In this document: positions 12,449 to 63,005 of the stretch, one piece after another | Numbering within the stretch: the stretch's first letter is position 1 | Layout: each line of letters opens with the position of its first letter | DNA from: Thermodesulfovibrionia bacterium | GTDB lineage: Bacteria > Nitrospirota > Thermodesulfovibrionia > JACRGW01 | Assembly (NCBI GenBank): GCA_919902655.1 | Contig: CAKKRL010000162.1 | Span: 251-64,250 of the forward strand | Reading direction: 5' to 3' | Length of the DNA: 64,000 bases | Position numbers and translations under genes: made by a program | Notes under the pieces: generated by a model | Database searches by the model: none | Told to the model about the DNA's origin: nothing | Seen by the model: the letters and a program-made list of their open reading frames with translations, nothing else

Positions 12449-13116
12449 CAGTCCTTTTTCCCCTGGACAACAATGGCCGGAGAAAATCTTCCAAGGGGCA
12501 TTCCTATACCGATATGCTCTATCTTCTTCATACCGAGTTCTTTAAGAATCCTCTTGATATCCTTCAGACTATTCATTCTTAAGGGCACTTTTATATAGGG
12601 GTCATGAAGCGGTGCGAGCTTGTAGCCAGCATAAATAAGAGGATTCAGGATATTCCTGAAGTCGAAATAAATAAAACCTCCCTTTTTACATACCCTCACC
12701 ATTTCCGATAATGTCTCCACCATATCCTTCCTTGCAGGCAGATTAAGGAAAAGGTTTATGCATACTACATGTTCAAAACTCTCATCCCTGAATGGAATAG
12801 ACTGGGAGATCCCCTTGACAATAGCAATTCTCTTTAGCCCTTTTTCAAGAAGCCTTTTCCTTGCCTTCAGGAGTATCTCATCCCATGGCTCCAGCCCGAT
12901 CACATCCATCACGGGACATTTGATGGATATCTCTGCAAGGAAAAGTCCTTCACCGCTGCCTATTTCAAGAAGCCTCCTATCAGGCCTGGCTGCAACAAGC
13001 TCTCCCACCTTCTTTCTTACAAGGAAAGGAAGATACCCTGCAGAATATTCTCCCATCTCCTCAGGCCTTGTAAATCCTTTTCTCAATCTATTGGCTATCC
13101 TTTCAATTACACCCAT
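12448..13116 (-). CDS. Class I SAM-dependent methyltransferase
   Basis: LLEIGSGEGLF motif I. About 220 aa. Confidence 0.75.
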   Translation of the reverse strand: MGVIERIANRLRKGFTRPEEMGEYSAGYLPFLVRKKVGELVAARPDRRLLEIGSGEGLFLAEISIKCPVMDVIGLEPWDEILLKARKRLLEKGLKRIAIVKGISQSIPFRDESFEHVVCINLFLNLPARKDMVETLSEMVRVCKKGGFIYFDFRNILNPLIYAGYKLAPLHDPYIKVPLRMNSLKDIKRILKELGMKKIEHIGIGMPLGRFSPAIVVQGKKD

Positions 13117-29411: not shown

Positions 29412-31343
29412 TTACTGGAGGGTGAAAGTTACAACTATAGAATTCTTTGACCTCTTTGATTCGTATGTAACATTCTCTGGAAGGATTTCGAACATTATGC
29501 TGATGGTACTTCCTTCTTCTTCTATAATCACGTCACCTACAAATGATGATTTTAGCCTCTGGATCTTCTCCATCTTTCTCACAGCAGGTGTTACCTTGAG
29601 ATTGAGCCACTTTTTCCCTTCCTTTGTGACAAGGGAAGACTTATGGTCGACAGGGCCGTTAGAGGTGACCATGAGGATCGCCCTTTTCTTGCTCTCGATA
29701 ATCCCTATATCACTTACCTCGTAAGGCCCATGAACTGCCTCCTTCTTAGCTATCTCCTTCTTGGGTTCTGCCTTTTTAGCCTCTGCCGTCTCAATCTTTT
29801 TTGCTACTTTTGTTTCAGGCTTTTTTGATTCCTTGGGCTCAGGTTTTTTTTCAACATCCTTCTTGACCTCAGTTTTAGGTTTTACTTCAGGCTTTGGTTT
29901 TTTCTTTACCTCTGGCTGTGCTGGTTTTGGCTTCTCCTCTACCTTTTTGGCAGGTGCAGGTTCAACCTTTTTCTCTGCCGGTGGTTTGGCCGCTTCAACC
30001 TTTTTTTCTTTCTTAACTTCTTCCCTCGCCCCTTCTGTTTTTGGTCCCATCTTTGCATTTATGGAAAATGACTCTGCCTTGTCATATGTGGCATTTACGA
30101 CTGCTATCCCGTTTGCGAATTCAGATGGAGATACTGTTGACGGTGTAAAAGTCCCTGTACCGGTTATACTGATATAAACTTCTCCTCCAATTAGGTTGTA
30201 ATCACGGACAACGTTTTTAAATCTGTCATACGCCTCTATCCTCAGTTTGAAACCCTGGCCTGCTGAGGCTGTTTCAGGGGTAACGACGATAAAGTGGTCA
30301 GGGGTAGCTGGCCTGATCCTGACAGTTCCGCTTTTTCCGCTTTCCTTCTTATTGCTCTCTGTCGCAACTACCTCTATATTTTCAGCAACTTCGTAGGTGA
30401 CTTTTACTACAGCATTCCCCCCCTTGAATTCTGAAGGAGAGATACGGTCGGGGTAGACTTTTCCCTTCCCTGTGGATGTGAGTTGTACCCCATCACCAGT
30501 TGTATTGTAATTGGTAACAGGATTCCCTATTTTATCATGGGCCGTTATTATAATTTCAAAGGGGTTCCCTGCTATACCGTCCTTTGGGGCCTGTACATTT
30601 AACGCACTCATGGCTCCGGGCAAGATATTTATCGATGAACTCTTCCCCCTGATTCCTGAATATGGGTCATAAACATCTATAATTACCTCTCCTGCTTTCC
30701 CTGAAAGAAACCTTGCTGTTGCAACACCTGATTTGAAATTCAGGGCCCCGCTATCGAGGTATTTGAGTCCACCTGTTCCAGTCGTATTAATCCTGAAGTC
30801 CTTCCCTATCCCTGCATCATCCTTGATCATATTTTCGAAGGAGTCTCTTGCAACTATCCTCACATCAAATGTATCTCCTGCCTTTACCTGGTTAGGTGTC
30901 TGGAGCACAAAATTATCGAGCCTGTTAGGTTTTATTATTATTTCTTTTGAAAGTATCGGAACATTCCCGCCTGTCTCTAAAACAGAAAAGGTTATAGTCT
31001 CGGCCTTCTTATCTCTGATATTTATGGCGGCGCTTCCTCCAAGGAAATTTGACGGACTCAGGACCTTTGGTTCTGCCTTGGCACTGCCTGAAACCCTTAT
31101 CTCAAACTCCCTGCCTGTTTCGTTAAAATCGGTTATAAGGTTATTATACATATCATAGGACTGCAGTCTTACAACAATATTTTCCCCGGCAATCGGGGCA
31201 GGAGGAATTTGTACGGTAAAATGACTGAACTTTCCTGGTTTTACTGTTATGGTTGCAGCCTTAAGGTCATGGTAGCCTGATAAGAATAAGCAGAATAATG
31301 ACAAGATTAATAAAAAGAGAAACCTTTTATGGGTATTTACCAT
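29412..31343 (-). CDS. Secreted/surface protein with four tandem ~90-aa beta-sandwich (Ig-like) repeats, a Lys/Pro/Glu-rich linker and a C-terminal AMIN-like domain
   Basis: Signal peptide. Four internally similar repeats (…SPSNF.GG.A…, …AG..F.V.I.A.D.F.N…). About 100 aa of low-complexity KPEVKK linker. The C-terminal domain resembles the AMIN domain of the amidase at 47242. Confidence 0.5.
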   Translation of the reverse strand: MVNTHKRFLFLLILSLFCLFLSGYHDLKAATITVKPGKFSHFTVQIPPAPIAGENIVVRLQSYDMYNNLITDFNETGREFEIRVSGSAKAEPKVLSPSNFLGGSAAINIRDKKAETITFSVLETGGNVPILSKEIIIKPNRLDNFVLQTPNQVKAGDTFDVRIVARDSFENMIKDDAGIGKDFRINTTGTGGLKYLDSGALNFKSGVATARFLSGKAGEVIIDVYDPYSGIRGKSSSINILPGAMSALNVQAPKDGIAGNPFEIIITAHDKIGNPVTNYNTTGDGVQLTSTGKGKVYPDRISPSEFKGGNAVVKVTYEVAENIEVVATESNKKESGKSGTVRIRPATPDHFIVVTPETASAGQGFKLRIEAYDRFKNVVRDYNLIGGEVYISITGTGTFTPSTVSPSEFANGIAVVNATYDKAESFSINAKMGPKTEGAREEVKKEKKVEAAKPPAEKKVEPAPAKKVEEKPKPAQPEVKKKPKPEVKPKTEVKKDVEKKPEPKESKKPETKVAKKIETAEAKKAEPKKEIAKKEAVHGPYEVSDIGIIESKKRAILMVTSNGPVDHKSSLVTKEGKKWLNLKVTPAVRKMEKIQRLKSSFVGDVIIEEEGSTISIMFEILPENVTYESKRSKNSIVVTFTLQ

Positions 31344-33326: not shown

Positions 33327-34412
33327 ATGGAATGTCAGAGAATCCATGAGATAAACTACAATGACTGGAGTAACGTCTTCCACAACAGGAATCTCGACAA
33401 AAGGGTGCCTATCTCAGGAAGCCTTGAACTCACCTTCAGATGCAACAATAACTGCATACACTGCTACTGTAACATACCTGCAAATGACAGAAATGAAATG
33501 TCTAAAGAGATGTCTACCTCTATGGCCACCAGAATCCTTAGTGAGATTGCAGATGAAGGGTGTCTCTGGCTCCTGCTTACAGGAGGCGAACCTCTTCTAA
33601 GGCCTGACTTTAAGGAGATATATCTCTATGCAAAGAAAAAAGGTATGCTCATAATATTATTTACAAACGGTACGCTTATTAATGAAGAAATAGCAGATCT
33701 CCTTTCAGAATGGATGCCCTACTCTGTAGAGATAACCCTTTATGGTGCCACAGAGAATACCTATGAGGATGTTACAAGGGTTCACGGCTCATACAGACAG
33801 TGTATGAAGGGTATTGAACTGCTTCTTGAGAGAAAAATCCCCCTCGAATTAAAGACGATGGCAATAAGGCAGAATGTCCATGAACTCCCTGTCATGAAGA
33901 AATATGCAGAAGACCTTGGCCTTAAATTCAGGTTCGACCCTATAATAAATGCCCGTTTAGATATGTGCAAGAACCCTCAATCAACAAGAATTGATATAGA
34001 GGATGTGATAAGGCTTGATCTCGAGGATGAAAAGAGATTAAAAGAATGGAAGGAATTCTGTGAAAAGTATATAGGTTCTCCTGATTCAGACAGGCTCTAT
34101 ACCTGCGGGGCTGGAATAAATACATTTCATATAGACCCATACGGTAACCTCAATATATGTATCATGGCAAGGAAGGATAGATATGATCTTAAGACAGGAA
34201 ACTTCAGAGATGGTTGGAATGATTTTTTAATTAAGCTAAGGGAAATGTCTATGAGCCCTTATAATAGATGTATGGGATGCGATCTCATGTCTCTCTGCGG
34301 TCAGTGCCCTGGATGGGCGCAAATGGAGCACGGGGATGATGAGACCCCTGTTGACTATTTATGTGATATTGCACACAAGAGGGCAGAGGCATTCGGGGTG
34401 AAAGGGCATTAG
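33327..34412 (+). CDS. Radical SAM/SPASM-domain peptide-modifying enzyme
   Basis: CNNNCIHC (CxxxCxxC). C-terminal SPASM cysteines (CGAGINTFHIDPYGNLNIC…CMGCDLMSLCGQCPG). Confidence 0.85.
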   Translation: MECQRIHEINYNDWSNVFHNRNLDKRVPISGSLELTFRCNNNCIHCYCNIPANDRNEMSKEMSTSMATRILSEIADEGCLWLLLTGGEPLLRPDFKEIYLYAKKKGMLIILFTNGTLINEEIADLLSEWMPYSVEITLYGATENTYEDVTRVHGSYRQCMKGIELLLERKIPLELKTMAIRQNVHELPVMKKYAEDLGLKFRFDPIINARLDMCKNPQSTRIDIEDVIRLDLEDEKRLKEWKEFCEKYIGSPDSDRLYTCGAGINTFHIDPYGNLNICIMARKDRYDLKTGNFRDGWNDFLIKLREMSMSPYNRCMGCDLMSLCGQCPGWAQMEHGDDETPVDYLCDIAHKRAEAFGVKGH

Positions 34413-35089: not shown

Positions 35090-36166
35090 TTGTTACTACT
35101 CAGAATCGCAGATATAAACCTTCTCTTTAAGTCTGATCTCAAAGGGCTAAAGATCGGCTATCCTCAAAAGAATTTTATTCATTCCACATTCCCTCAATCC
35201 TCTCCCCAAAAGGGAGTGGAGGCAAAAAAGAAAGTCCCCTCTCCCCAACGGGGAGAGGGTCAGGGTGAGGGGGAAATTATTGACTGCACCATATCTATAG
35301 AACACCACCCTCTACCCTTTAATATTAAAGATAAAGAGATCTTCAGCCATGCAGGACCCTGGAAACTTTTCAGGAACAGAAAAGGTTATAAGATTGCCTT
35401 CTTTTTCCCCGCTTTAAAGCCTGATTATTACATGCTTGCAGAATTTAAAAGGGATTTCTCAAGGGTAAGACTATATATAAAAGACGCGGATCTTCGCTAC
35501 GCTCAGAATGACAAGCGAAGGGCTCAGAATGACAACAAGAAGACCTTTATTATTTCCCATCCCCTTGACCAGCTTTTAGTCATCAACCTCCTCTCCCGTG
35601 GCAGAGGAGTAATGATACACTCCTGTTGTGTCAATGATAACGGAAGGGGTTTCCTTTATGCCGGGACATCTCGCTCTGGCAAGAGTACGACTGCGAAACT
35701 CTGGTTAAAGCAGACAAAACCCTCCGAATCCCCCCACACCCCACTTTGGAAAAGGGATAATCCCCCTTCCTCCCCCTTTATTAAAGGGGGAATAGAGGGG
35801 GATTTTAAAGATATGACAGGAGTGAAGGTTTTAAGCGATGACAGGATTATAATCAGAGAGTTTGATGATAAGATCTATGCCTATGGCACACCCTGGCATG
35901 GGGAGGTAAATGTCTGTGATCCTGGAAGGGTGGAGATAGAAAGGATATTCTTCCTTCAACACTCGACGAAAAACTATGTGAAGTCACTTCCTCCTGTGGA
36001 TGCAGCAACGAGGATGTTTGTCAGATGCTTCCCCACCTTCTGGGATAAGGAAGGTATGGCATTTACACTGAAATTCATAGATGAGGTGGTCAGGAAAGTC
36101 CCCTGCTATGAATTCGGATTCGTGCCGGATAAAAGTGCGGTCAATTTCGTTAGAGGGCTTCGCTGA
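35090..36166 (+). CDS. HPr kinase/phosphorylase-like P-loop kinase (HprK-related). Its N-terminal region carries three in-frame repeat-element insertions. The start is uncertain: the track lists TTG at 35090, and the first ATG is at about 35432.
   Basis: P-loop LYAGTSRSGKST (HprK Walker A pattern G-x-S-G-x-GKS) plus downstream DDRII…GTPWHGE. Repeat families A, C and B lie in frame. Confidence 0.5.
   Translation: MLLLRIADINLLFKSDLKGLKIGYPQKNFIHSTFPQSSPQKGVEAKKKVPSPQRGEGQGEGEIIDCTISIEHHPLPFNIKDKEIFSHAGPWKLFRNRKGYKIAFFFPALKPDYYMLAEFKRDFSRVRLYIKDADLRYAQNDKRRAQNDNKKTFIISHPLDQLLVINLLSRGRGVMIHSCCVNDNGRGFLYAGTSRSGKSTTAKLWLKQTKPSESPHTPLWKRDNPPSSPFIKGGIEGDFKDMTGVKVLSDDRIIIREFDDKIYAYGTPWHGEVNVCDPGRVEIERIFFLQHSTKNYVKSLPPVDAATRMFVRCFPTFWDKEGMAFTLKFIDEVVRKVPCYEFGFVPDKSAVNFVRGLR
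35190..35281. repeat. Palindromic repeat family A, copy 1 (tccctcaatcctctcccc … cccctctcccc aac ggggagaggg … gggtgaggggg), in frame in the HprK-like ORF
   Basis: Shares the core CCTCAATCCTCTCCCC…GGGGAGAGG with copies at 36449-36500 and 50519-50562. Confidence 0.6.
35501..35540. repeat. Repeat family C, copy 1: tandem gctcagaatgacaa(gcgaag)ggctcagaatgacaa, in frame in the HprK-like ORF (encoding AQNDKRRAQNDNK)
   Basis: A near-identical arrangement at 52165-52205 (ggactcggaatgacaagcaaaggactcagaatgacaa) is intergenic. Confidence 0.55.
35726..35808. repeat. Repeat family B, copy 2, in frame in the HprK-like ORF (encoding …SPHTPLWKRDNPPSSPFIKGGIEGDFK)
   Basis: aatccccccacacccc…atcccccttcctccccctttattaaagggggaatagagggggatttt aligns with the reverse complement of 7861-7935. 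Confidence 0.55.
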
Positions 36167-36276: not shown

Positions 36277-36831
36277 ATGAAACCCGACCTCCAGACTATA
36301 ACATCCATAATCCTTGATGAAGGATACTATGCTGCTTTACCCACAATAGGCCCATCTATGTACCCTGTTATTAGAGCAGGCGACAAAATCTATGTTGAAT
36401 CCCTTATGGGAAGGACGCCTGAAACTGGAGATATTGTACTCTTTAAATCCCCCTCACCTCAATCCTCTCCTCTACGAGCCATGGCCCCAAGGGGAGAGGA
36501 AGTAAGTGTAGAGTCCTCTCTCTCTAATAGAGAAGAAGTAATTATGGTATGCCACAGGCTTCTGAAGATATTCAAGAAGGATGGTACTACTTATTATCAA
36601 ACAAGAGGAGATGCCTATTTCTATAAAGACATACCTATAACATATGACCAGATTATCGGAAGGGTTGTAAAGGTTGAACGGTCTGTAGTATCTTTGCCAA
36701 GGAAGATCCTTTTGACTTTAAACCCCTTCTTAGGAAAATTTACCATACTGAATGCAGCTATAATTACTGTATTGGTATGGATTAAAAAGGCTTTAGTAAA
36801 AAATAACCATTTGTTTATCGGTTATTTTTAG
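36277..36831 (+). CDS. S24/S26 (signal peptidase I / LexA-like) serine peptidase-fold protein with a C-terminal TM helix and a repeat-encoded insertion
   Basis: PTIGPSMYPVIRAGDKIYVE (the GxSMxP nucleophile region of S26/S24). Insertion …SPSPQSSPLRAMAPRGEEVSVESS… is encoded by repeat family A. Confidence 0.45.
   Translation: MKPDLQTITSIILDEGYYAALPTIGPSMYPVIRAGDKIYVESLMGRTPETGDIVLFKSPSPQSSPLRAMAPRGEEVSVESSLSNREEVIMVCHRLLKIFKKDGTTYYQTRGDAYFYKDIPITYDQIIGRVVKVERSVVSLPRKILLTLNPFLGKFTILNAAIITVLVWIKKALVKNNHLFIGYF
36449..36500. repeat. Repeat family A, copy 2, in frame in the S26-like ORF (encoding SPSPQSSPLRAMAPRGEE)
   Basis: ccctcacctcaatcctctcc…ggggagagga. Same reading frame (PQSSP) as copy 1. 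Confidence 0.55.
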
Positions 36832-52866: not shown

Positions 52867-52895
52867 TTGACAATCCTTCAGAGAATTTGTATAAT
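52867..52895 (+). promoter_or_regulatory. Perfect consensus sigma70 promoter TTGACA-N17-TATAAT upstream of yceD-rpmF-plsX-fabH
   Basis: TTGACA 52867-52872, 17-nt spacer, TATAAT 52890-52895. Read directly. Confidence 0.65.
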
Positions 52896-52924: not shown

Positions 52925-53431
52925 GTGCATATAAATATCAGCGATATCCCTGAAGAGGGATTAACCTTAGACTACAATGAAGAACCCCTGACCTTATCTG
53001 AAGGAACCAGGGTTGAAGGTAAAATAGGGGTCTCCCTCAGGGTTTTGAAGGCAGAGACAATTGTCACTGTATCCGGCGATGTGAATGTAACCCTGGGTCT
53101 TGAGTGTAGCAGGTGCATCAAGGAATTTTTCTACCCTTTGAGTTCTTCCTTCAGGGTTGATTATATGCCCCTGAAGGAAATAGGAAAGGATAAGGAATAC
53201 GAACTAAAAGGTGCCGATCTCGACATAAGTTTTTACAAGGAAGACAGGATAGACCTTACCGAGCTTATTAAGGAACAGATCCTGCTTTCCTTGCCGATGC
53301 AACCTCTGTGTTCCCCTGACTGTAAGGGGTTGTGTCCTAAATGTGGCAAGGACCTCAAGGTGGGGCCCTGCAAGTGTGAGATAAAGGAGATAGATCCAAG
53401 ATTTGAAATATTAAAAAAATTGAAAGGATAA
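52925..53431 (+). CDS. yceD: YceD/DUF177 family protein (23S rRNA accumulation protein), upstream of rpmF
   Basis: C-terminal CSPDCKGLCPKCGKDLKVGPCKCE four-Cys motif. Conserved synteny with rpmF-plsX. Confidence 0.75.
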   Translation: MHINISDIPEEGLTLDYNEEPLTLSEGTRVEGKIGVSLRVLKAETIVTVSGDVNVTLGLECSRCIKEFFYPLSSSFRVDYMPLKEIGKDKEYELKGADLDISFYKEDRIDLTELIKEQILLSLPMQPLCSPDCKGLCPKCGKDLKVGPCKCEIKEIDPRFEILKKLKG

Positions 53432-53439
53432 TTTAAGAA

Positions 53440-53622
53440 ATGGGAAATCCTAAACATAAGATTTCAAAATCAAGAAGGGATAAAAGAAGAACCCATAAGA
53501 TACTCTCCGCACCATTTCTCTCGATATGCCCCCAATGCAGGGAGCACAAGTTACCGCACTATGCCTGTCCTAGCTGCGGTACATACAAGGGCCTCGAGGT
53601 ACTTACCGTAAAAGAGATTTAA
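53440..53622 (+). CDS. rpmF: 50S ribosomal protein L32
   Basis: [19 protein letters not shown]… with CPQC…CPSCG zinc ribbon. Confidence 0.9.
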
Positions 53623-53623
53623 G

Positions 53624-54646
53624 GTGAAGATTGCCATTGATGCCATGGGGGGAGACCACGCCCCTGTTGCAATCGTAGAAGGGGCTGTCGAGGCTGCAAG
53701 GGAACATGGCATAGAGATTATCCTTGTTGGAGACAAGGATAGTCTATCCCGCGAGCTTTCAAAATACAATATAACCGGCCTATCCCTGAGCCTCAGACAT
53801 GCCTCACAGATCATAGAGATGGAAGACCCCCCTTTAGCCCCCTTAAGAAAGAAAAAGGACTCTTCCATAAGGGTTGCAGCAGAAATGGTCAAAAGAAAAG
53901 AGGCTGCAGCATTTATTAGTGCGGGTCATACAGGGGCAACGATGGCAACTGCCTTCTACACCTTCGGCCCCCTCCCCGGCGTGGAAAGGCCTGCAATAGC
54001 CACGTTCCTCCCGACCCTCAAAGGTGTTTCGATAATGCTCGATGTGGGAGCAACAGTTGACTGCAAACCTGTTCACCTCCTCCAGTTTGCACTCATGGGA
54101 GATATCTACTGCAAGGAGATTCTGAACAAAGAGGAGCCAAAAGTCGGGTTACTCAGTATAGGCGAGGAAGATATTAAGGGAAACGAACTGACAAGGGAAT
54201 CCTTTAAACTTTTAAAAAGTACCGATATCAATTTTATAGGAAATGTTGACGGAAAAGATGTATTCAGTGGCAAGGCAGACGTTATTGTCTGCGATGGTTT
54301 CATAGGTAATATCGCCCTGAAAATAAGTGAAGGGCTTGCTGATGCAATAACCAAGATGCTTAAGAGAGAGATAGCAGACGCCCCCTCAGGGAGATTTGGG
54401 TATTTCTTACTCAAGTCTGCCTTTAAGAATTTCAGAAAGAGGACAGACTATTCGGAATACGGTGGGGCGCCGCTTCTTGGAGTAAACGGTATCTGTATTA
54501 TTGGACATGGAAGATCTTCTTCAAAGGCAATAACGAATGCCGTACAGGTGGCTGTGAATTTTTCTAAAAGCGGGATAAACGAAAAGATAAGTAAAAAGAT
54601 GTCCTCCCTCTTCCAGACCAGAAAAATAAGGAGGGCAACGAAATAG
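53624..54646 (+). CDS. plsX: Phosphate acyltransferase PlsX
   Basis: MKIAIDAMGGDHAP N-terminus. GTG start. Confidence 0.9.
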   Translation: MKIAIDAMGGDHAPVAIVEGAVEAAREHGIEIILVGDKDSLSRELSKYNITGLSLSLRHASQIIEMEDPPLAPLRKKKDSSIRVAAEMVKRKEAAAFISAGHTGATMATAFYTFGPLPGVERPAIATFLPTLKGVSIMLDVGATVDCKPVHLLQFALMGDIYCKEILNKEEPKVGLLSIGEEDIKGNELTRESFKLLKSTDINFIGNVDGKDVFSGKADVIVCDGFIGNIALKISEGLADAITKMLKREIADAPSGRFGYFLLKSAFKNFRKRTDYSEYGGAPLLGVNGICIIGHGRSSSKAITNAVQVAVNFSKSGINEKISKKMSSLFQTRKIRRATK

Positions 54647-55626
54647 TGAAGAGATCAAGGATAGTCGGCTCCGGTTCCTATGTCCCGAAGATGGTACTCA
54701 CGAACTTCGATCTCGAGAGTATGGTCAATACCTCTGATGAATGGATTATCGAGAGGACAGGTATAAGGGAAAGACGTATAGCCGGAAAGGATGAGGCTGC
54801 ATCTGACCTTGCCTATGAGGCATCTCAGAGGGCACTTAAGTCATCAGGCATTAAGGCAAAGGATATAGACCTCATTATACTTGCAACCACAACCCCTGAT
54901 ATGGTCTTCCCTTCCACTGCCTGTTTACTTCAGGACAGGCTTAATGCTAAAAAGGCAGTCGCCTTCGATGTCTCTGCAGCCTGTTCAGGCTTTATCTATT
55001 CTCTCTCTGTTGCAGATCAGTTCATTAAAGAGGGGATATACAAAACTGCCCTTGTGGTCGGATCAGAGGTGCTCTCGAGGATAACTGACTGGAATGACAG
55101 GGCTACGTGCATCCTCTTCGGCGATGGTGCAGGTGCGGTGGTACTTCAGGCATCGTCGGACAGAAGAGGAATCATATCAGTCCATCTCCATTCTGACGGG
55201 GCACTGAAAGACCTCCTCTATATACCAGGAGGGGGATCAAGAAACCCCGCATCAAAGAAAACAATTGAAAAAGGACTCCATTACATAAAGATGAGAGGTA
55301 ATGAGACCTTCAAGGTCGCTGTAAGGAAACTTGAGGAAGTTGCCCTCGAGGCGATCAATTCTAATAACCTCAAGCCTTCTGATATAGACCTCTTCATTCC
55401 ACATCAGGCAAATTTGAGAATCATACAGGCAATAGCAAAGAGGCTCAATCTTTCTATGGATAAGGTCCTCGTAAATATAGACAGATACGGTAACACCTCT
55501 GCTGCCTCAATCCCGATAGCCCTTGATGAGGCAGTAAGCGAAGGAAGGCTCAAAGAGGGAGATTTAATACTTATGGAGGCATTCGGAGGCGGTCTTACCT
55601 GGGCCTCAGCACTCTTGAGATGGTAA
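54646..55626 (+). CDS. fabH: 3-oxoacyl-ACP synthase III
   Basis: …AACSGFIYSL… (active-site Cys), HQAN and …N.DRYGNTSAASIP… motifs. Confidence 0.9.
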   Translation: MKRSRIVGSGSYVPKMVLTNFDLESMVNTSDEWIIERTGIRERRIAGKDEAASDLAYEASQRALKSSGIKAKDIDLIILATTTPDMVFPSTACLLQDRLNAKKAVAFDVSAACSGFIYSLSVADQFIKEGIYKTALVVGSEVLSRITDWNDRATCILFGDGAGAVVLQASSDRRGIISVHLHSDGALKDLLYIPGGGSRNPASKKTIEKGLHYIKMRGNETFKVAVRKLEEVALEAINSNNLKPSDIDLFIPHQANLRIIQAIAKRLNLSMDKVLVNIDRYGNTSAASIPIALDEAVSEGRLKEGDLILMEAFGGGLTWASALLRW

Positions 55627-55712
55627 AGAGTAAGGGATCAAGGATTCAAGGGGTCAAGGGGTTAAGTATCTCACTTGAACCCTCGATTCCTCGAACCCTT
55701 GAATTCTTTTCC
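55625..55712. repeat. Long imperfect hairpin built from four tandem octamers (GGATCAAG GATTCAAG GGGTCAAG GGGTTAAG), a loop, then the complementary octamers
   Basis: Read directly, immediately after the fabH stop. Period-8 direct repeats on each arm. Confidence 0.6.
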
Positions 55713-55751
55713 CAATCTTTGTGGAAAACAACAACTTTATAGGAGTCAATC

Positions 55752-56909
55752 ATGGATTATTTTTTAACAGATGCACAGAAGACAATTCGCGACATTGCAA
55801 GAAAGATAGCAATTGAGAAGGTAGTTCCTTCAAGGGCTGAACTTGATGAGAAAGAGGAATTCCCCCATGAAATAATGAAGGCCCTTGCCCAGGCAGATCT
55901 GTTCGGACTTTATATACCCGAGAAGTATGGTGGTTTCGGCGGAGGAAGCATCGATCTTGCCCTTGCTGTGGAAGAATTGAGCTCTGCCTGTCTCGGCGTT
56001 TCAACCACTTTTGCTGCAAATGCACTTGCTGCATATCCCGTCCTCCTCTTTGGCAGCGAAGAACAGAAAAAGAGCTTTCTTCCGGATATAGCATCAGGAA
56101 AGAAACTTGCTGCATTCGGTCTTACAGAGGCTGGTGCAGGCAGCGACGCAGCGGCCATCCAGACTACAGCAAAAAAAGAAGGCGATGAATATATCCTTAA
56201 TGGCACTAAACAATGGATTACAAATGGTGGAGAGGCAGAAATCTATACCATAATAGCAATGACAGATAAATCCAAAGGGACTCGCGGTGCCTCAGCATTT
56301 ATCGTGGAAAAAGGGACTCCAGGATTTAGTTTCGGTAAGAAGGAGAAGAAGATGGGAATAAGGGCCTCAGCAACAAGGGAATTGGTCTTTGAAAACTGCC
56401 CTGTTCCGAAGGAGAACCTCCTCTCCAAAGAGGGGATGGGTTTTATCGTAGCAATGAGAACACTCGATATCTCAAGAGTAGGTATAGGCGCACAGGGGGT
56501 TGGCCTTGCACATGGGGCCCTCGATGAAGCAGTAAAATATGCAAGAGAAAGACATCAGTTCGGCAAGCCCATTATATCTTTCCAGGCCATACAGCACATG
56601 CTTGCAGATATGGCCATATTGACAGAATCAGCAAGGGCGCTAGTCTATTCTACTGCACGTGTCATTGACAGCGGTTCTAAGGAGTATTCTAAGGAGTCCG
56701 CTATGGTTAAAGTATTTGCTTCGGATGTAGCGATGAAGGTAGCAACAGACGCAGTCCAGATCTTCGGGGGTTATGGCTATATGAGGGAATACCCTGTTGA
56801 GAAGATGATGAGAGACGCAAAGATCCTTCAGATATATGAGGGAACAAACCAAATACAGAGAAATATTATCGGTCAGGCACTGATAAAGGAAGCAGCGAGC
56901 AAAAAATAG
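55752..56909 (+). CDS. Acyl-CoA dehydrogenase family protein (FAD-dependent), inserted between fabH and fabD
   Basis: 385 aa. Typical ACAD layout: …GLTEAGAGSDAAA…, …YEGTNQIQR… C-terminus. Confidence 0.85.
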   Translation: MDYFLTDAQKTIRDIARKIAIEKVVPSRAELDEKEEFPHEIMKALAQADLFGLYIPEKYGGFGGGSIDLALAVEELSSACLGVSTTFAANALAAYPVLLFGSEEQKKSFLPDIASGKKLAAFGLTEAGAGSDAAAIQTTAKKEGDEYILNGTKQWITNGGEAEIYTIIAMTDKSKGTRGASAFIVEKGTPGFSFGKKEKKMGIRASATRELVFENCPVPKENLLSKEGMGFIVAMRTLDISRVGIGAQGVGLAHGALDEAVKYARERHQFGKPIISFQAIQHMLADMAILTESARALVYSTARVIDSGSKEYSKESAMVKVFASDVAMKVATDAVQIFGGYGYMREYPVEKMMRDAKILQIYEGTNQIQRNIIGQALIKEAASKK

Positions 56910-56960
56910 TCTTTAGTCAGCAGTCGGCAGTCAGTAGCAAAGAAAAATAAAAAATAAAAA
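56909..56960. repeat. Tandem heptamers (agtcttt agtcagc agtcggc agtcagt), then (aaaaat/aaaaaat)x3 between the ACAD and etfB genes
   Basis: Read directly. Confidence 0.45.
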
Positions 56961-57746
56961 ATGAATATAATCGTCTGCATAAAACAGGTACCTGATACCT
57001 CTGAGGTAAGGATAAACCCTGAGACAAACACCCTTATCAGGGAAGGCGTCCCCTCTATTGTTAACCCCTTTGATATGTATGCCATAGAGGAGGGATTAAG
57101 GATAAAGGAAATGATAGGTGGGAAGGTAACTGCCATTTCAATGGGCCCCCCTCAGGCATTGGAGGCACTTAAAGAGGCATTCTCCCTCGGTGTGGATGAG
57201 GTAATTCTTATCTCTGATCGTGCCTTTGCAGGTTCGGACACACTGGCAACATCCTATACACTATCAAAGGCTATAGAGAAGATCGGCCTCTTCGACATTA
57301 TCCTCTGCGGGAAACAGGCTATTGACGGCGATACAGCACAGGTAGGTCCTGAACTTGCTGAACATCTCGGAATCCCTTTTGTTACCTCTGTGAAAAAGAT
57401 AGATGAGATACGAGAGGGCTACCTCAGGGTCCACAGGATGATGGAAGATGGATATGATGTGATAGAGACCAGACCTCCGGCGCTTCTCACCGTCGTGAAA
57501 GAGATCAATGAACCAAGACCTCCTTCACTTAAAAGAAAAATACAGGCAAAAAACCTCCAGGTACCTGTCTGGAGAAAGGAAGATCTGGATGTAGATGAAA
57601 AGAGGCTCGGCCTTAAAGGGTCTCCTACACAGGTATTAAGGATCTTTCCTCCTGAGATAAAGGGTGAGAGGAAAATCCTTGAGGGTAATCTGGAAGAACA
57701 GATATATAAACTTGTATCAGAACTGAAGGGTCTGGGCATACTTTGA
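56961..57746 (+). CDS. etfB: Electron transfer flavoprotein beta subunit
   Basis: MNIIVCIKQVPDTSEVRINPETNTL N-terminus. Confidence 0.85.
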   Translation: MNIIVCIKQVPDTSEVRINPETNTLIREGVPSIVNPFDMYAIEEGLRIKEMIGGKVTAISMGPPQALEALKEAFSLGVDEVILISDRAFAGSDTLATSYTLSKAIEKIGLFDIILCGKQAIDGDTAQVGPELAEHLGIPFVTSVKKIDEIREGYLRVHRMMEDGYDVIETRPPALLTVVKEINEPRPPSLKRKIQAKNLQVPVWRKEDLDVDEKRLGLKGSPTQVLRIFPPEIKGERKILEGNLEEQIYKLVSELKGLGIL

Positions 57747-58930
57747 TCAGGATCAAAAGAGAAATCTGTACAGGCTGTGAGATATGTATCAGCAGTTGTC
57801 CTTACGGTGCCATAGAGATGGTGGAGGACAGGGCATTCATCACAGAGATGTGTAATCTCTGCAGGGCCTGCCTCTCTGCATGTCCTGTCGGCGCTATAAT
57901 TGAAACAGAGGAATCCCGACTCCCGACCACTGACTCCCGACTTATGGACTTTTCAGGTGTCTGGGTATTTGCAGAACAAAGGAGAGGAAAACTCCACGAT
58001 GTCTCATTAGAACTCCTGGGAGAAGGGAGACGGCTCGCCAATATACTCTCAACAGAACTCTCTGCTGTTCTTATAGGAAGTAATATCGAGAAAGAGGCAA
58101 AGACCCTTATAGCCTATGGTGCAGATAAGGTCTTCGTTGCTGACGACCCTTCTCTCTCTGATTTCCATGACGATTCCTACGGACATATCCTCGCCGGGCT
58201 CATCGAGAAAGAGAAACCTGAAATAATACTCTCAGGTGCCACATCCATAGGAAGGTCATTTATTCCGAAGGTAGCGGCAAGGCTGAGAACAGGTCTAACA
58301 GCCGACTGCACAAGACTTGGCCTTGACGGGAAAATACTCCATCAGATAAGGCCTGCCTTTGGAGGGAATATCATGGCAGTTGTTATCTGTCCAAATCGGA
58401 GACCCCAGATAGCTACAGTAAGACCCAGGGTCTTCAAAAAGCCGATCCCTGAAAAAGGCAGGAAAGGAAAGGTCATTAAAGTTCATGTTCCTGAAGATAT
58501 CTCTTTGAGGACAAAGACACTCGAATTTGTAAAAGACCTCACAAGCACAGTAAATATCTCTGAGGCAGATGTAATAATCGCAGGAGGAAGGGGTCTCGGG
58601 GATGCAAAGAATTTCAGATTACTCGAAGAACTTGCAGAGGCCCTGGGAGGAGCGATAGGTGCATCAAGGGCAGCAGTGGATGCAGGATGGATCTCCTATC
58701 CCCATCAGATTGGACAGACAGGCATGACTGTATCACCGAGACTCTATATTGCCTGCGGCATCTCAGGCGCTGTCCAGCATCTTGTCGGGATGCAATCCTC
58801 TGATATAATAGTTGCCATAAACAAGGACCCCGACGCACCTATATTCAAGGTAGCAACATACAGTATCGTAGGTGATGCGCTGGAGGTTATTCCGCTTCTT
58901 GTGAAAAAAATTAAGGAGGTCAGGGGTTGA
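57743..58930 (+). CDS. etfA: Electron transfer flavoprotein alpha subunit with an N-terminal 2x[4Fe-4S] ferredoxin domain
   Basis: Two CxxCxxCxxxCP motifs (CTGCEICISSCP, CNLCRACLSACP), then the EtfA FAD-binding C-terminus (…GISGAVQHLVGM…). Confidence 0.8.
   Translation: MIRIKREICTGCEICISSCPYGAIEMVEDRAFITEMCNLCRACLSACPVGAIIETEESRLPTTDSRLMDFSGVWVFAEQRRGKLHDVSLELLGEGRRLANILSTELSAVLIGSNIEKEAKTLIAYGADKVFVADDPSLSDFHDDSYGHILAGLIEKEKPEIILSGATSIGRSFIPKVAARLRTGLTADCTRLGLDGKILHQIRPAFGGNIMAVVICPNRRPQIATVRPRVFKKPIPEKGRKGKVIKVHVPEDISLRTKTLEFVKDLTSTVNISEADVIIAGGRGLGDAKNFRLLEELAEALGGAIGASRAAVDAGWISYPHQIGQTGMTVSPRLYIACGISGAVQHLVGMQSSDIIVAINKDPDAPIFKVATYSIVGDALEVIPLLVKKIKEVRG
57915..57955. repeat. Tandem heptamers (cccgact cccgacc actgact cccgact) in frame in etfA-Fd (encodes SRLPTTDSRL)
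   Basis: Read directly. Related to the GAGTCTG family by reverse complement plus one substitution. Confidence 0.5.
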
Positions 58931-59859
58931 AGATAGCCTTTATCTTTCCGGGCCAGGGTTCGCAGTATGTCGGTATGGGAAAGGACTTGTATGAGAACTT
59001 CCCTGCTGTCAGATTTATTTATGAACAGGCAGAAGAGGTCCTGGGCTATGACCTCAGAGGGCTATGTTTTAATGGCCCTCAGGATAAACTCAATCTCACA
59101 GAATATACACAGCCTGCTGTATTCACAACAGACATTGTTATCCTGAAGGCAGTTGAGGATGCCGGCATTAAATCGTCTTTTGTTGCAGGTCATAGTCTTG
59201 GCGAATATTCCGCTCTCGTTGCTGCTAAAGGTATGGATTTTTCTGATGCACTCAGGGTAGTTCTGAAGAGAGGACTTTTTATGCAGGAGGCAGTTCCTGA
59301 GGGAAAAGGCATGATGGCTGCCATCCTCGGCCTTGAACCTTCTGTTGTTGAAAATATATGTAAAAAGGCATCATCCTTTGGAACTGTTACACCTGCCAAT
59401 TACAACTGCCCCGGGCAGATCGTCATCGCAGGTGAGAAGACTGCGGTTCAGGAGGCATCAAGGCTTGCCACAGAGAACGGGGCAAAGAAGGTCATACCAC
59501 TGAAGGTCAGCGTCCCTTCCCATTCTCCTCTGATGGTCTCAGCAGGTAAAAGACTTGAGATAGAGATGAATGATCTGGTGATGAAGGATCTCAGTATCCC
59601 CCTTGTGAATAATGCTGATGCAAGATTCCTGACCTCTGCCAAGGAGATAAGGTCTTCCCTGATAAGACAGGTAAGCGAACCTGTCCTCTGGGAGAGGTCT
59701 ATAAGAGGAATCATTAAATCAGGTGGAGATACCTTTATCGAAATAGGACCAGGTAAGGTTCTCTCAGGTCTTTTAAGAAGGATAGATGATAGTGTAAAGA
59801 TATTTAATGTCGAAGACATAAAAAGCCTTGAATCCTTAAAGGAGGCATTATGGAATTAG
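58927..59859 (+). CDS. fabD: Malonyl-CoA:ACP transacylase
   Basis: FPGQGSQYVGMG and GHSLGEYSAL active-site motifs. Confidence 0.9.
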   Translation: MKIAFIFPGQGSQYVGMGKDLYENFPAVRFIYEQAEEVLGYDLRGLCFNGPQDKLNLTEYTQPAVFTTDIVILKAVEDAGIKSSFVAGHSLGEYSALVAAKGMDFSDALRVVLKRGLFMQEAVPEGKGMMAAILGLEPSVVENICKKASSFGTVTPANYNCPGQIVIAGEKTAVQEASRLATENGAKKVIPLKVSVPSHSPLMVSAGKRLEIEMNDLVMKDLSIPLVNNADARFLTSAKEIRSSLIRQVSEPVLWERSIRGIIKSGGDTFIEIGPGKVLSGLLRRIDDSVKIFNVEDIKSLESLKEALWN

Positions 59860-60590
59860 ATGGTCAGGTAGCCCTTGTAACAGGCGGGGGGCAGGGTATC
59901 GGAAAGGCAATATCTTTAGCCCTTGCAAAAGACGGGGCAGATATGATAATCTTTGAACTTAATTTAGATAAGGCAGAGGAGGTTTCAAAAAAGATCGGGG
60001 ATATGGGAAGAAAATGTATCACTGTAAAGGTCAATGTGGCTAATCCCGAGGATGTTGAGAATGGTTTTCACAAGGCAATCGAGACCTTCGGCAAAATAGA
60101 CATCCTTGTCAATAATGCAGGTATAACTAAGGATGCCCTGATCGTCAGGATGAAGGATGAGGACTGGGATAATGTCCTCAACGTAAATCTTAAAGGTGCC
60201 TTCTTATGCACAAGGGCCGCTGTTAAGACAATGTCCAAACAGAGATACGGGAGGATAATAAGCATATCCTCTGTGGTAGCCTTTATGGGAAATTCAGGAC
60301 AGGCAAATTATGTTGCATCCAAGGCAGGCATAGTTGGCTTTACAAAAACTGTGGCAAGGGAATATGCATCGAGAGGCATCACTGTCAATGCAATAGCGCC
60401 TGGTTTTATACAGACTTCAATGACCGACGCCCTTCCTGAACAGGTTAAGGAGGCGATGCTCAAGGAAATACCTCTCGGGGAATTCGGCGACCCGGAAGAT
60501 ATCGCAAATGCAGTAAGATTTCTTGCATCAAAGGATTCAGGATATATAACAGGACAGGTCATTCATGTAAATGGTGGGATGTATATGTAA
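59850..60590 (+). CDS. fabG: 3-oxoacyl-ACP reductase
   Basis: TGGGQGIGKAI Rossmann motif, NNAG, and the YVASKAG catalytic motif. Confidence 0.9.
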   Translation: MELDGQVALVTGGGQGIGKAISLALAKDGADMIIFELNLDKAEEVSKKIGDMGRKCITVKVNVANPEDVENGFHKAIETFGKIDILVNNAGITKDALIVRMKDEDWDNVLNVNLKGAFLCTRAAVKTMSKQRYGRIISISSVVAFMGNSGQANYVASKAGIVGFTKTVAREYASRGITVNAIAPGFIQTSMTDALPEQVKEAMLKEIPLGEFGDPEDIANAVRFLASKDSGYITGQVIHVNGGMYM

Positions 60591-60685: not shown

Positions 60686-60931
60686 ATGGCAGCAGAAGAA
60701 AAATCGATTGAGGAAAAGGTAAGGAAGATAATTTCAGATCAGTTAGGAGTTGACGCTGAAGAGGTCACTCCGGATGCCTCATTTGTAGATGATTTGGGGG
60801 CTGACTCTCTGGACACGGTTGAACTCGTCATGGCCTTCGAGGAAGAGTTTCATATCGAGATCCCTGACGAAGATGCAGAGAAGATAGCTAAGGTTCAGGA
60901 CGCTATCAATTATATTAAGGATAAAATGTGA
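60686..60931 (+). CDS. acpP: Acyl carrier protein
   Basis: [20 protein letters not shown] (phosphopantetheine Ser). SD gggaggtg upstream. The track ORF starts 12 nt earlier, at 60674. Confidence 0.9.
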
Positions 60932-61042: not shown

Positions 61043-62296
61043 ATGGAGAGAGGTATTCTAAAAAAAAGGGTGGTCGTTACAGGCATCGGCCTTATTACAC
61101 CTCTTGGTTTAGACTTTGAAAAAAGCTGGCAGGCCCTGTGTAAAGGTTACTCCGGCGTTGATAAAATAACCCTTTTCGACCCTAAAGACCTGACAACACA
61201 GATAGCGGCTGAGGTAAAGGATTTTAATCCCTCAGACTGGATCGAGCAGAAAGAGATAAAAAAAATGGACCGTTTCATCCATTTTGCCGTCTCCGCGAGT
61301 CAGATGGCAATGGATGATTCAGGGTTAAAGATCAACGGCGGAAATGCAGACAGCACTGGAGTAATTGTCGGCTCAGGTATGGGGGGAATGGCTGCCGTGG
61401 AGCATTACCATTCCGTTCTCATGGAAAAAGGTCCAAAAAGGATCTCTCCATTTTTCATTCCGATGACCATTATAAACCTTGCCTCTGGTCAGATATCCAT
61501 AAGATTTGGTGCAAAGGGGCCAAACTCTGCGCCTGTTACTGCCTGCGCAGCAGGAACCCACGCAATAGGTGAGGCCTTCAGGTTAATACAGAGAGGCGAT
61601 GCCGATGCCATGATAACAGGAGGGACAGAAGCTGTTATTACACCACTCGCTATCGGAGGTTTCTGTTCGATGAAGGCACTTTCAACTCGAAATCATGAAC
61701 CACATAAAGCAAGCCGTCCATTTGAGAGGGACAGGGACGGATTTGTGATGGGAGAAGGTGCAGGGATCCTTATCCTCGAATCCCTCGAATCCGCACTCAT
61801 CAGAGATGCAAGGATATACGCAGAGATTATCGGATTCGGCATGAGCGGAGATGCTTACCATATATCATCCCCTTCCCCTGATGGTGAAGGTGCTGCAAGG
61901 TGTATGGCCATGGCATTGAGGGACAGCGGCATAGGCCCTTCAGATGTTGATTATATAAATGCCCACGGCACATCAACTAAATACGGAGATGAACTTGAGA
62001 CAAAGGCGATAAAGACCGTCTTCGGAGGTCATGCCTATAGATTGAAGGTCAGTTCTACCAAATCAATGACAGGTCATCTCCTTGGTGCTGCTGGCGGTGT
62101 TGAGGCAGTTATTTCCATACTTGCAATCCATAGGGGTATCATCCCTCCAACAATCAATCTTGAGAACCCTGACCCCGAATGTGATCTCGATTATGTACCG
62201 AATAAGGCTATTGAGGCCAGGATAGATACCGCTATGTCCAATTCCTTCGGCTTCGGCGGAACAAATGCCTGTGTTATCTTCAAACGTTATGAATAA
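61043..62296 (+). CDS. fabF: 3-oxoacyl-ACP synthase II
   Basis: Active-site …ACAAGTHAIG…, HGTST and GHLLGAAG motifs. Confidence 0.9.
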   Translation: MERGILKKRVVVTGIGLITPLGLDFEKSWQALCKGYSGVDKITLFDPKDLTTQIAAEVKDFNPSDWIEQKEIKKMDRFIHFAVSASQMAMDDSGLKINGGNADSTGVIVGSGMGGMAAVEHYHSVLMEKGPKRISPFFIPMTIINLASGQISIRFGAKGPNSAPVTACAAGTHAIGEAFRLIQRGDADAMITGGTEAVITPLAIGGFCSMKALSTRNHEPHKASRPFERDRDGFVMGEGAGILILESLESALIRDARIYAEIIGFGMSGDAYHISSPSPDGEGAARCMAMALRDSGIGPSDVDYINAHGTSTKYGDELETKAIKTVFGGHAYRLKVSSTKSMTGHLLGAAGGVEAVISILAIHRGIIPPTINLENPDPECDLDYVPNKAIEARIDTAMSNSFGFGGTNACVIFKRYE

Positions 62297-63005
62297 AATA
62301 TCCAGCGCTGAAGTGACTAACATCGAAGAAAAGATTAATTATACCTTCCGAAATAAAGATGTCCTCCGTGAGTCCCTGACTCATAAGTCCTATTCAAACG
62401 AGAACAGACTCCTCTATAATAACGAGCGTCTGGAATTTCTCGGCGATGCAGTCCTGAACCTGATCATCAGCGACTACCTGCTCAGGAGACTTCCTGATTC
62501 TCCCGAGGGAGACCTTAGCAAGCTCAGGGCAATGGTAGTCAATGAAAATACACTATCAAAGGTTGCAGAAAGGATAGAGCTCGGAAATGAACTCTTTCTG
62601 GGAAAAGGAGAGGACATGACAGGCGGAAGAGAGAAACCTTCTCTCCTCTCAGACGCCCTCGAGGCATTAATCGCTGCCATTTATCTCGATGGTGGTATTG
62701 ATGAGGTATCTTCTTTTGTAAATAGATTCTTTGACGAAGAAATAAGGATCGCCGTCTCGAAAGGAATCTCTTACGATTTCAAGACAGACCTCCAGGAATG
62801 CTGTCAGGGCAGGTTCGGCATATTGCCAAGATACCATGTCTCGAGGGAATCAGGCCCTGACCACAAAAAGGTCTTTGAGGTGAGTCTATTCATAAAGGAT
62901 GAGCACTATGGAACAGGAATAGGTAAAACAAAGAAAGAGGCTGAGCAGAGAGCAGCACGGGAGGCCCTCGAAAAGCTCAAATTCGAAATTTTAAATTCTA
63001 AATAA
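62289..63005 (+). CDS. rnc: Ribonuclease III (the track ORF starts at 62265; ATGAATAA overlaps the fabF stop)
   Basis: ERLEFLGDAVL catalytic signature and a C-terminal dsRBD. Confidence 0.85.
   Translation: MNKISSAEVTNIEEKINYTFRNKDVLRESLTHKSYSNENRLLYNNERLEFLGDAVLNLIISDYLLRRLPDSPEGDLSKLRAMVVNENTLSKVAERIELGNELFLGKGEDMTGGREKPSLLSDALEALIAAIYLDGGIDEVSSFVNRFFDEEIRIAVSKGISYDFKTDLQECCQGRFGILPRYHVSRESGPDHKKVFEVSLFIKDEHYGTGIGKTKKEAEQRAAREALEKLKFEILNSK

Follow-up and report, generated by a model that had tools for sequence, protein, structure and literature searches.

An acyl-CoA dehydrogenase and EtfBA module in the fatty-acid synthesis operon of a Thermodesulfovibrionia bacterium: a possible enoyl-ACP reductase

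We examined a 64-kb stretch of DNA (here called the window) from an uncultured Nitrospirota bacterium of the Thermodesulfovibrionia, in which three genes, for an acyl-CoA dehydrogenase (ACAD) family flavoprotein and for the EtfB and EtfA subunits of an electron-transferring flavoprotein (Etf), lie inside an operon for type II fatty-acid synthesis (FAS II). All operon genes are on the plus strand and co-directional, in the order yceD-rpmF-plsX-fabH-[ACAD-etfB-etfA]-fabD-fabG-acpP-fabF-rnc. An earlier note, made from the letters of this DNA alone, had placed the ACAD and EtfBA genes between fabH and fabD and had given EtfA an N-terminal 2x[4Fe-4S] domain. Both its coordinates and its gene assignments were confirmed, the Pfam and NCBIfam scores agree, and the domain is borne out by Fer4 matches and two cluster motifs. 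The features of the three-gene module are as follows.

55752..56909, plus strand: ACAD-family flavoprotein of the Bcd/CarC type, 385 aa, proposed enoyl-thioester reductase subunit (Pfam and PDB matches)
56961..57746, plus strand: EtfB (small subunit), predicted bifurcating group 2 type, 261 aa (Pfam PF01012, E 9e-47)
57743..58930, plus strand: EtfA (large subunit), CarE-like, with fused N-terminal ferredoxin domain, 395 aa, TTG start (Pfam ETF E 5e-49, ETF_alpha E 7e-37)
57743..57922, plus strand: ferredoxin-like 2x[4Fe-4S] domain of EtfA (Pfam Fer4 families, residues 2-58)

Start and stop codons overlap by 4 nt at etfB/etfA, by 4 nt at etfA/fabD and by 10 nt at fabD/fabG, and intergenic gaps of 125 nt and 51 nt separate fabH from the ACAD gene and the ACAD gene from etfB. 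The GC content of the three genes, overall and at third codon positions (GC3), equals that of the neighbouring fab genes, which argues that ACAD-etfBA is native and not a recent insertion.

The ACAD-EtfBA module and its closest relatives

The ACAD protein matches the Pfam families Acyl-CoA_dh_N, Acyl-CoA_dh_M and Acyl-CoA_dh_1 (PF02771, PF02770 and PF00441; E 3e-33, 4e-29 and 1e-54), which cover residues 6-377. Its best solved matches are the butyryl-CoA dehydrogenase (Bcd) of C. difficile (5OL2_C, 432 bits), 4L1F_A of A. fermentans (413 bits) and CarC (340 bits), and its catalytic Glu lies in the motif IYEGTNQIQ, aligned to IYEGTSEVQ of 5OL2_C. In C. difficile Bcd, residues F155, E198, Y340, T343 and Y346 dock domain II of EtfA (PMC5691135). 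The window ACAD has W (Trp155), E (Glu198), Y, M and Y at these positions, which keep their aromatic and acidic character, with T343 replaced by M. The ACAD reached no NCBIfam equivalog cut-off; its best model was AcrC (acryloyl-CoA reductase), at 474 bits where 640 are required.

The helix-E region of the protein aligns gap-free to human medium-chain acyl-CoA dehydrogenase (MCAD) and not to Bcd. Ser84 and Ala88 are aligned to MCAD Gln95 and Glu99, which we take to form the floor of the substrate pocket and to be replaced by Gly in the very-long-chain enzyme (VLCAD). Such small pocket-floor residues are a weak hint that the substrate may be of longer chain (non-C4). The mean net charge of fab-linked members of the ACAD clade described below is about -0.9. 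For Bacillota/Elusimicrobia members the value is -4.5, and for two Bcd references it is -5 and -15. The less negative charge of the fab-linked members might, again as a weak hint, point to an acidic partner.

Both Etf subunits score higher against bifurcating than against canonical Etfs. EtfB reaches 225-254 bits against the former (LctB 254, CarD 249, C. difficile EtfB 240) and 78-90 against the latter (human ETF-beta 90), and the corresponding ranges for EtfA are 296-417 and 140-166 bits, with CarE (6FAH_A) matched at 417 bits over residues 2-392, ferredoxin domain included, and LctC at 306 bits. The two cluster motifs of EtfA, CTGCEICISSCP and CNLCRACLSACP, are both of the form CxxCxxCxxxCP. 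Group 2 Etfs are marked around the bifurcating FAD by the motifs RxGV and SPTxV in the small subunit and RPxFGG in the large one (PMC10734219), and all are present here: EtfB carries LIREGV, DGDTAQVGP and GSPTQV, and EtfA carries IRPAFGG, which holds the Arg equivalent to CarE Arg203 that contacts the bifurcating FAD. Judged by these scores and motifs, EtfAB is of the electron-bifurcating (group 2) type.

CarCDE of Acetobacterium woodii (6FAH) shows the same three-subunit design, including the N-terminal 2x[4Fe-4S] domain on EtfA. It differs in that the window ACAD is closer to Bcd than to CarC, in that the module lies in a fab operon instead of a caffeate-respiration operon, and in that the substrate proposed here is an enoyl thioester of acyl carrier protein (enoyl-ACP). 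The Bcd-EtfAB complexes (C. difficile 5OL2, A. fermentans 4L1F/4KPU and C. kluyveri) include the best ACAD match and share the catalytic Glu, the docking positions and a bifurcating Etf, whereas the window EtfA has an extra ferredoxin domain and the gene context is FAS II, not crt-bcd-etfBA-hbd. Because of the structural matches and the group-2 motifs, the module is, by sequence, of the Bcd-EtfAB/CarCDE kind of NADH-dependent, ferredoxin-reducing enoyl-thioester reductase; the ferredoxin domain of CarE and the properties of these complexes have been reviewed (PMC5861303).

Association with fatty-acid synthesis genes across genomes

A scan for the ACAD in one genome per GTDB species returned 588 relatives, and the loci of the best 80 (67-78 % identity) were mapped, over up to 21 kb each, by tblastn with the operon proteins of the window. 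Represented among these 80 are Nitrospirota, Thermodesulfobacteriota/'Deltaproteobacteria', Syntrophorhabdaceae, Omnitrophota, Margulisiibacteriota, Saganbacteria, Edwardsbacteria, Elusimicrobia, PVC bacteria and Bacillota. The ACAD gene, with or without etfBA, is directly flanked by fab genes in 45 of the 80 loci, and in 32 of the 49 that have at least 3 kb upstream and at least 4 kb downstream. We recorded 22 distinct gene orders, 19 of them with fab genes, under at least six phylum-level labels. The window's own order, plsX-fabH-ACAD-etfB-etfA-fabD-fabG-acpP-fabF, occurs in Nitrospirota and Margulisiibacteriota. An order without fabD, plsX-fabH-ACAD-etfB-etfA-fabG-acpP-fabF (the fabH-ACAD-etfBA-fabG type), occurs in Thermodesulfobacteriota/'Deltaproteobacteria', as does plsX-ACAD-fabD-fabG-acpP-fabF, without fabH and without adjoining etf genes; the order fabH-ACAD-fabG was also recorded. 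Omnitrophota and others place the module at the end of the operon (fabF-rnc-ACAD-etfB-etfA), and a four-gene unit, ACAD-etfB-etfA-fabD, was seen far from the remaining fab genes. All 17 of the Thermodesulfobacteriota/'Deltaproteobacteria' loci are fab-linked, and in seven complete operons of this group (plus partial variants) the ACAD gene follows plsX with no fabH nearby. This multi-phylum linkage is the strongest evidence here for a role in fatty-acid synthesis.

Among five relatives sampled through FabD, the ferredoxin-fused EtfA gene stands just upstream of fabD in four, and no FabK or FabI gene was found in the operon of any of the five. At locus L086 (7001-12078) this EtfA gene alone, without adjoining ACAD or EtfB, heads fabD-fabG-acpP-fabF-rnc.

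Some loci were noted individually. Locus L091 reads etfB-etfA-(23S rRNA IVP-like ORF)-fabD and L090 reads ACAD-DeoC-ADH-etfB-etfA-x-fabD; together with L086 they are cases in which etfA-fabD adjacency persists where the remaining operon is broken up. At L040, L043, L045, L046, L053, L056, L072 and L074 (Thermodesulfobacteriota/Syntrophorhabdaceae), where the order is plsX-ACAD-fabD-fabG-acpP-fabF, the ACAD gene occupies the usual fabH position, with no fabH or etf gene within 10 kb. In the otherwise typical Nitrospirota fab operon of L008, a 3-kb insertion (11165-14126) parts the ACAD gene from etfB; it holds unrelated open reading frames (ORFs), one with a SEC-C-type CPCGSGKKYKKCC motif, and an opposite-strand CBS-like ORF lies between etfA and fabD.

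A neighbour-joining tree unites all 82 ACAD sequences in one tight clade, which a long branch separates from two catabolic Bcd references, and the clade tree broadly follows taxonomy. Recent horizontal insertion of ACAD-etfBA was considered and ruled out by this agreement with taxonomy together with the fab-like GC and GC3. On the phylogenetic placement raised in the earlier note the answer is divided: by sequence the protein is of the butyryl-CoA dehydrogenase/CarC family, with its 432 bits to Bcd, yet its clade stands apart from the two catabolic references. The clade is set off from both references by residues invariant in its 82 members, namely a one-residue deletion in helix E after Ala88, TEAGAGSD for TEPxAGTD, TKQWITNGG for SKIFITN (KQW for KIF), and the single residues Arg178, Arg303, Met344 and Lys351, which could serve as a diagnostic signature of the subfamily. 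Between the window and locus L028, identity is 72 % for ACAD, 64 % for FabH, 58 % for FabD, 63 % for FabG, 69 % for FabF and 76 % for AcpP. The ACAD is thus conserved at least as well as most core FAS enzymes, and in L028 only AcpP is higher. These observations show that ACAD-etfBA belongs natively to the FAS-II operon and that the link is no accident of one genome. The FAS-linked role that the earlier note proposed is strengthened by its recurrence in many phyla and gene orders, except in one element, the use of ferredoxin as electron donor: by analogy with CarDE and Bcd-Etf, NADH would be the donor and ferredoxin the second acceptor.

We also looked for canonical enoyl-ACP reductases (ENRs). 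In a Pfam scan of 58 long window ORFs (mostly at least 100 aa), no FabI/L-type short-chain dehydrogenase/reductase (SDR) besides fabG, no nitronate monooxygenase (NMO)/FabK and no FabV-type protein was found, and tblastn of the window with an E. coli FabI sequence and an NMO protein found nothing. This bears out the earlier statement that no fabI, fabK or fabV is visible in the window. Within 10 kb of the ACAD gene in 84 loci (L001-L084) no FabI- or FabK-type gene was found, the sole exception being a FabX-like NMO gene in two loci. This gene lies between acpP and fabF (L034, 15167-16147; L050, 15197-16171), and both operons also carry ACAD-etfBA. Its protein scores 143 bits against H. pylori FabX and 137 bits against the best FabK, and four Cys residues in a C-terminal motif (CxxCxxxCxxxxC) fall on the [4Fe-4S] site of FabX in the alignment; either a dehydrogenase/isomerase like FabX or a FabK variant linked to ferredoxin may be encoded here. 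A FabK hidden in unassigned gaps of related fab operons was likewise considered and rejected, since only unrelated ORFs occupy those of L008, L052, L060 and L073 and NMO genes occur only in L034 and L050.

Catabolic partners were sought as well. The window contains no thiolase, crotonase or 3-hydroxyacyl-CoA dehydrogenase (hbd) gene. Among the neighbours of Bacillota/Elusimicrobia members, eight of the ten checked match unrelated Pfam families and the other two have no Pfam match, and four of the Nitrospirota loci with the ACAD gene alone, read as ORF lists only, show no recognisable catabolic neighbours. Members without fab linkage sit among housekeeping genes, by Pfam PrkA, MetRS, SpoIIR, RluA, MotA and RACo/corrinoid proteins and, going by their ORF sequences only, mdh, ndk, hpt, queD, kds and arg genes. 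The catabolic grouping that the earlier note had contemplated finds little here, in that no clade member examined (by ORF lists and partial Pfam checks) adjoins recognisable butyrate or beta-oxidation genes; a catabolic bcd operon was ruled out for the window and the members examined by the lack of thiolase, crotonase or hbd neighbours.

A proposed role in enoyl reduction and its alternatives

A role in fatty-acid synthesis appears most likely because the association with fab genes survives rearrangements and spans phyla and because no catabolic partners occur in the loci examined. The only FAS-II step that chemically matches a Bcd/CarC-type enzyme is the reduction of a trans-2-enoyl thioester. 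In Firmicutes, fabK occupies the slot beside fabD in the fab operon. An enoyl-ACP reductase is favoured since this chemistry fits, since no other enzyme for the step is visible in these operons and since the Firmicutes slot holds fabK; that fabK lies inside the large FAS operon is stated in PMC9671860. Our favoured reading, drawn by analogy with the solved complexes and held with roughly even confidence, is that ACAD-EtfBA would be an NADH-dependent, ferredoxin-reducing (bifurcating) enoyl-ACP reductase of FAS II.

According to this reading, a cytoplasmic flavoenzyme complex of the Bcd-EtfAB/CarCDE kind would have been recruited to type II fatty-acid synthesis for enoyl reduction. The bifurcating FAD between EtfB and EtfA would be reduced by NADH. 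One electron would then take the uphill path to ferredoxin or flavodoxin by way of the two [4Fe-4S] clusters in the ferredoxin domain of EtfA, where, as has been proposed for CarE, the low-potential branch would leave the complex; the other would run downhill, via the FAD of EtfA, to the FAD of the ACAD subunit. Once two such rounds are complete, the ACAD would reduce the trans-2-enoyl thioester, which we propose to be enoyl-ACP with chains of C4 to C16-18, to its saturated acyl counterpart. The net reaction would be 2 NADH + enoyl-ACP + 2 Fd(ox) -> 2 NAD+ + acyl-ACP + 2 Fd(red), where Fd is ferredoxin, so that each elongation cycle would also yield low-potential reducing power, which would suit strictly anaerobic, energy-limited carriers. 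We infer complex formation, the direction of electron flow, the substrate (ACP over CoA, and its chain length) and the replacement of FabI, FabK, FabL or FabV, as opposed to an addition to them.

Several observations weigh against the favoured reading. The ACAD is nearest by sequence to CoA-dependent enzymes, and models of dehydrogenases acting on acyl-ACP or on peptidyl carrier protein (PCP) are far under cut-off (MbtN 89 bits against 700, RedW 272 against 650, PigA 259 against 500). The ACAD gene stands alone in 22 mapped loci and ACAD-etfBA is without fab genes in 12; among the latter 12 is every Bacillota and Elusimicrobia member, from lineages where FabK is common, and PVC members are not fab-linked either. 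Because the Bacillota and Elusimicrobia members lack fab linkage, the function of the clade is not necessarily tied to replacement of an ENR. Part of the Nitrospirota architectures may be fragments or decay of one ancestral operon and not independent events, the NMO gene in L034 and L050 could itself be the reductase, and in the window a strong hairpin with a U-rich tail stands between fabH and the ACAD gene. Finally, a study of metagenome-assembled genomes (MAGs) saw Bcd beside EtfAB in Margulisbacteria, Saganbacteria and Melainabacteria and read these genes as ordinary and probably non-bifurcating (PMC6349859), and does not mention a fab context for them.

One alternative, which we consider unlikely, is an ordinary bifurcating butyryl-CoA dehydrogenase/Etf, acting on short-chain enoyl-CoA such as crotonyl-CoA for redox balancing or ferredoxin reduction and riding on the strong promoter of a housekeeping rpmF-plsX-fab operon. 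Clostridial Bcd and CarCDE as best solved matches, AcrC as best NCBIfam model, the members in Bacillota, Elusimicrobia and the PVC clade that are not fab-linked and the Bcd/EtfAB annotation of homologous genes in the MAG literature (PMC6349859) are all in keeping with it. However, neither thiolase, 3-hydroxybutyryl-CoA dehydrogenase nor crotonase lies near any member examined, every NCBIfam equivalog score is below its cut-off (that of AcrC included), and the clade stands on its long branch from the two catabolic Bcd references. Passive hitch-hiking would also not predict the fab linkage across many phyla and gene orders or the translational overlap of etfA and fabD.

We think it improbable that the enzyme is an oxidative acyl-ACP (or acyl-CoA) dehydrogenase with Etf as acceptor, which would introduce a trans-2 double bond for anaerobic unsaturated fatty acids or another lipid modification, much as H. 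pylori FabX does in backtracking. Oxidation is the usual direction of ACADs, the fab-operon context is compatible with any ACP-linked role, and FabX is a flavin/Fe-S dehydrogenase acting on acyl-ACP in FAS II (PMC8626469). Yet all solved enzymes with this type of Etf and a Bcd/CarC partner run reductively with NADH, and oxidation of the acyl thioester (about -10 mV) towards NAD+ would presumably require reduced ferredoxin as a co-substrate. An isomerase partner was not seen, and in the two operons that hold a FabX-like gene besides the module this gene may already take the backtracking role.

An enoyl-CoA reductase that supplies butyryl- or hexanoyl-CoA primers to FabH, or that serves CoA-level elongation feeding FAS II, would explain why the ACAD gene directly follows fabH in many operons and why its sequence is nearest to CoA-dependent enzymes, but we give it little credence, given that the gene also follows plsX without fabH (the seven complete Thermodesulfobacteriota/'Deltaproteobacteria' operons), follows fabF-rnc or accompanies fabD alone, that no other reverse-beta-oxidation gene is linked to it, and that the small pocket-floor residues do not suggest a short-chain specialist.

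Enoyl reduction is the most variable step of FAS (FabI, FabL, FabK and FabV) and a major antibiotic target, and a class of new fold would extend this list. FabI and FabL (SDR), FabK (FMN, NMO fold) and FabV have the proposed reaction and the place in pathway and operon in common with the module, which is unrelated to them in fold, subunits and predicted cofactors (three FAD plus two [4Fe-4S]) and in its proposed stoichiometry of 2 NADH with ferredoxin reduction. The ACAD, EtfB and EtfA proteins match only the ACAD, ETF and Fer4 families and belong to no known ENR family. We would only tentatively, and with somewhat less than even confidence, propose a fifth, structurally unrelated class of enoyl-ACP reductase, in which a bifurcating ACAD-EtfAB would make reduced ferredoxin. 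A precedent for Fe-S flavoenzymes in FAS II is H. pylori FabX (7E1Q-7E1S), a flavin and [4Fe-4S] enzyme acting on acyl-ACP; it differs from the window ACAD in being an NMO/TIM-barrel dehydrogenase/isomerase for unsaturated fatty acids, with no ACAD fold and no Etf partner. MbtN and the prolyl-PCP dehydrogenases RedW/PigA/AnaB show that the ACAD fold can accept thioesters bound to a carrier protein, but they are distant from the window ACAD (AnaB 4IRN, 220 bits), oxidise their substrates and belong to secondary metabolism.

Full-text literature searches found no paper describing an ACAD/Etf enoyl-ACP reductase or a linkage of ACAD and fab genes, and a review of ENRs makes no mention of ACAD, Etf or ferredoxin (PMC9260719). 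The enzyme family is known; the new part is its recruitment to FAS II, for which we found no description. If the favoured reading is right, it may explain how many uncultured anaerobes complete the fatty-acid cycle, and carrier lineages would be intrinsically insensitive to inhibitors directed at FabI, FabK or FabV. To our knowledge, all electron-bifurcating Etf complexes serve catabolism or respiration, and we know of no ENR that conserves energy. With the module, flavin-based electron bifurcation would for the first time be known from a core biosynthetic pathway: the energy drop of enoyl reduction (about -10 mV against -320 mV for NADH) would be partly recovered as reduced ferredoxin in each cycle, and lipid synthesis would conserve energy in Thermodesulfovibrionia, Thermodesulfobacteriota, Omnitrophota, Margulisiibacteriota and others. 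Many MAGs are read as having 'butyrate metabolism' or 'Bcd/EtfAB' from this gene set, and such reconstructions would need correcting if the genes serve lipid synthesis.

Other features of the operon and the window

The remaining features of the operon, including a candidate promoter and an RNA hairpin, are listed here.

52867..52895, plus strand: candidate operon promoter, TTGACA-17 nt-TATAAT, 12/12 consensus positions, 30 nt 5' of yceD (consensus match only)
52925..53431, plus strand: yceD (DUF177, 23S rRNA accumulation protein), first operon gene (Pfam PF02620, E 2.6e-34)
53440..53622, plus strand: rpmF, ribosomal protein L32 (TIGR01031, 74 bits against a cut-off of 22.6)
53624..54646, plus strand: plsX, phosphate acyltransferase (TIGR00182, 383 bits against a cut-off of 243)
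54646..55626, plus strand: fabH, beta-ketoacyl-ACP synthase III (NCBIfam NF006829 (PRK09352), 479 bits against 249; TIGR00747, 465 against 292)
55624..55722, plus strand: predicted RNA hairpin between fabH and the ACAD gene, formed by TCAAGG(G) repeats and with UUCUUUUCC (U-rich tail) after it; minimum free energy -39.8 kcal/mol, z -3.2
58927..59859, plus strand: fabD, malonyl-CoA:ACP transacylase (TIGR00128, 348 bits against 261)
59850..60590, plus strand: fabG, 3-oxoacyl-ACP reductase (TIGR01830, 349 bits against 298)
60686..60931, plus strand: acpP, acyl carrier protein, DSLD motif (NF002148, 128 bits against 71)
61043..62296, plus strand: fabF, beta-ketoacyl-ACP synthase II (Pfam ketoacyl-synt and Ketoacyl-synt_C)
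62265..63005, plus strand: rnc, RNase III, last operon gene, with a 32-nt overlap with fabF (Pfam Ribonucleas_3_3 and dsrm)

A single perfect sigma-70 consensus was found 5' of yceD, and this sequence, at 52867-52895, is likely to be the promoter of the whole yceD-rpmF-plsX-fab-rnc operon. The mechanical ORF of acpP begins at GTG 60674; we place the start at ATG 60686, which is probably the true one, because family models align only from residue 9 and this ATG sits 8 nt past a GGAGG. The intergenic gaps of the operon show no convincing intrinsic terminator, yet the one between fabH and the ACAD gene holds the strong U-tailed hairpin, which none of 200 shuffled sequences matched in folding. It is possibly an attenuator or an element of RNA processing or stability; related loci do not share it in the corresponding gap, and an Rfam scan of the whole window gave no matches.

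Upstream of the operon, 1-52 kb of the window is a lipopolysaccharide/O-antigen and cell-envelope region. ORFs 6387-7955 (522 aa), 29412-31343 (643 aa), 35090-36166 (358 aa) and 36277-36831 (184 aa), which lie within the glycan cluster or next to it, match no Pfam family at E <= 1e-8. The envelope-glycan genes proper (348-47148) include several glycosyltransferases, at least six S-adenosylmethionine (SAM) methyltransferases, two DegT aminotransferases, WbqC, Wzy, Wzx, a polysaccharide export protein, an rml-type dTDP-sugar pathway and lptD. Two radical SAM proteins, at 10095-11258 (with a SPASM domain) and 33327-34412, are encoded in the same region, and a PIN-domain toxin gene (9365-9769) lies in its midst.

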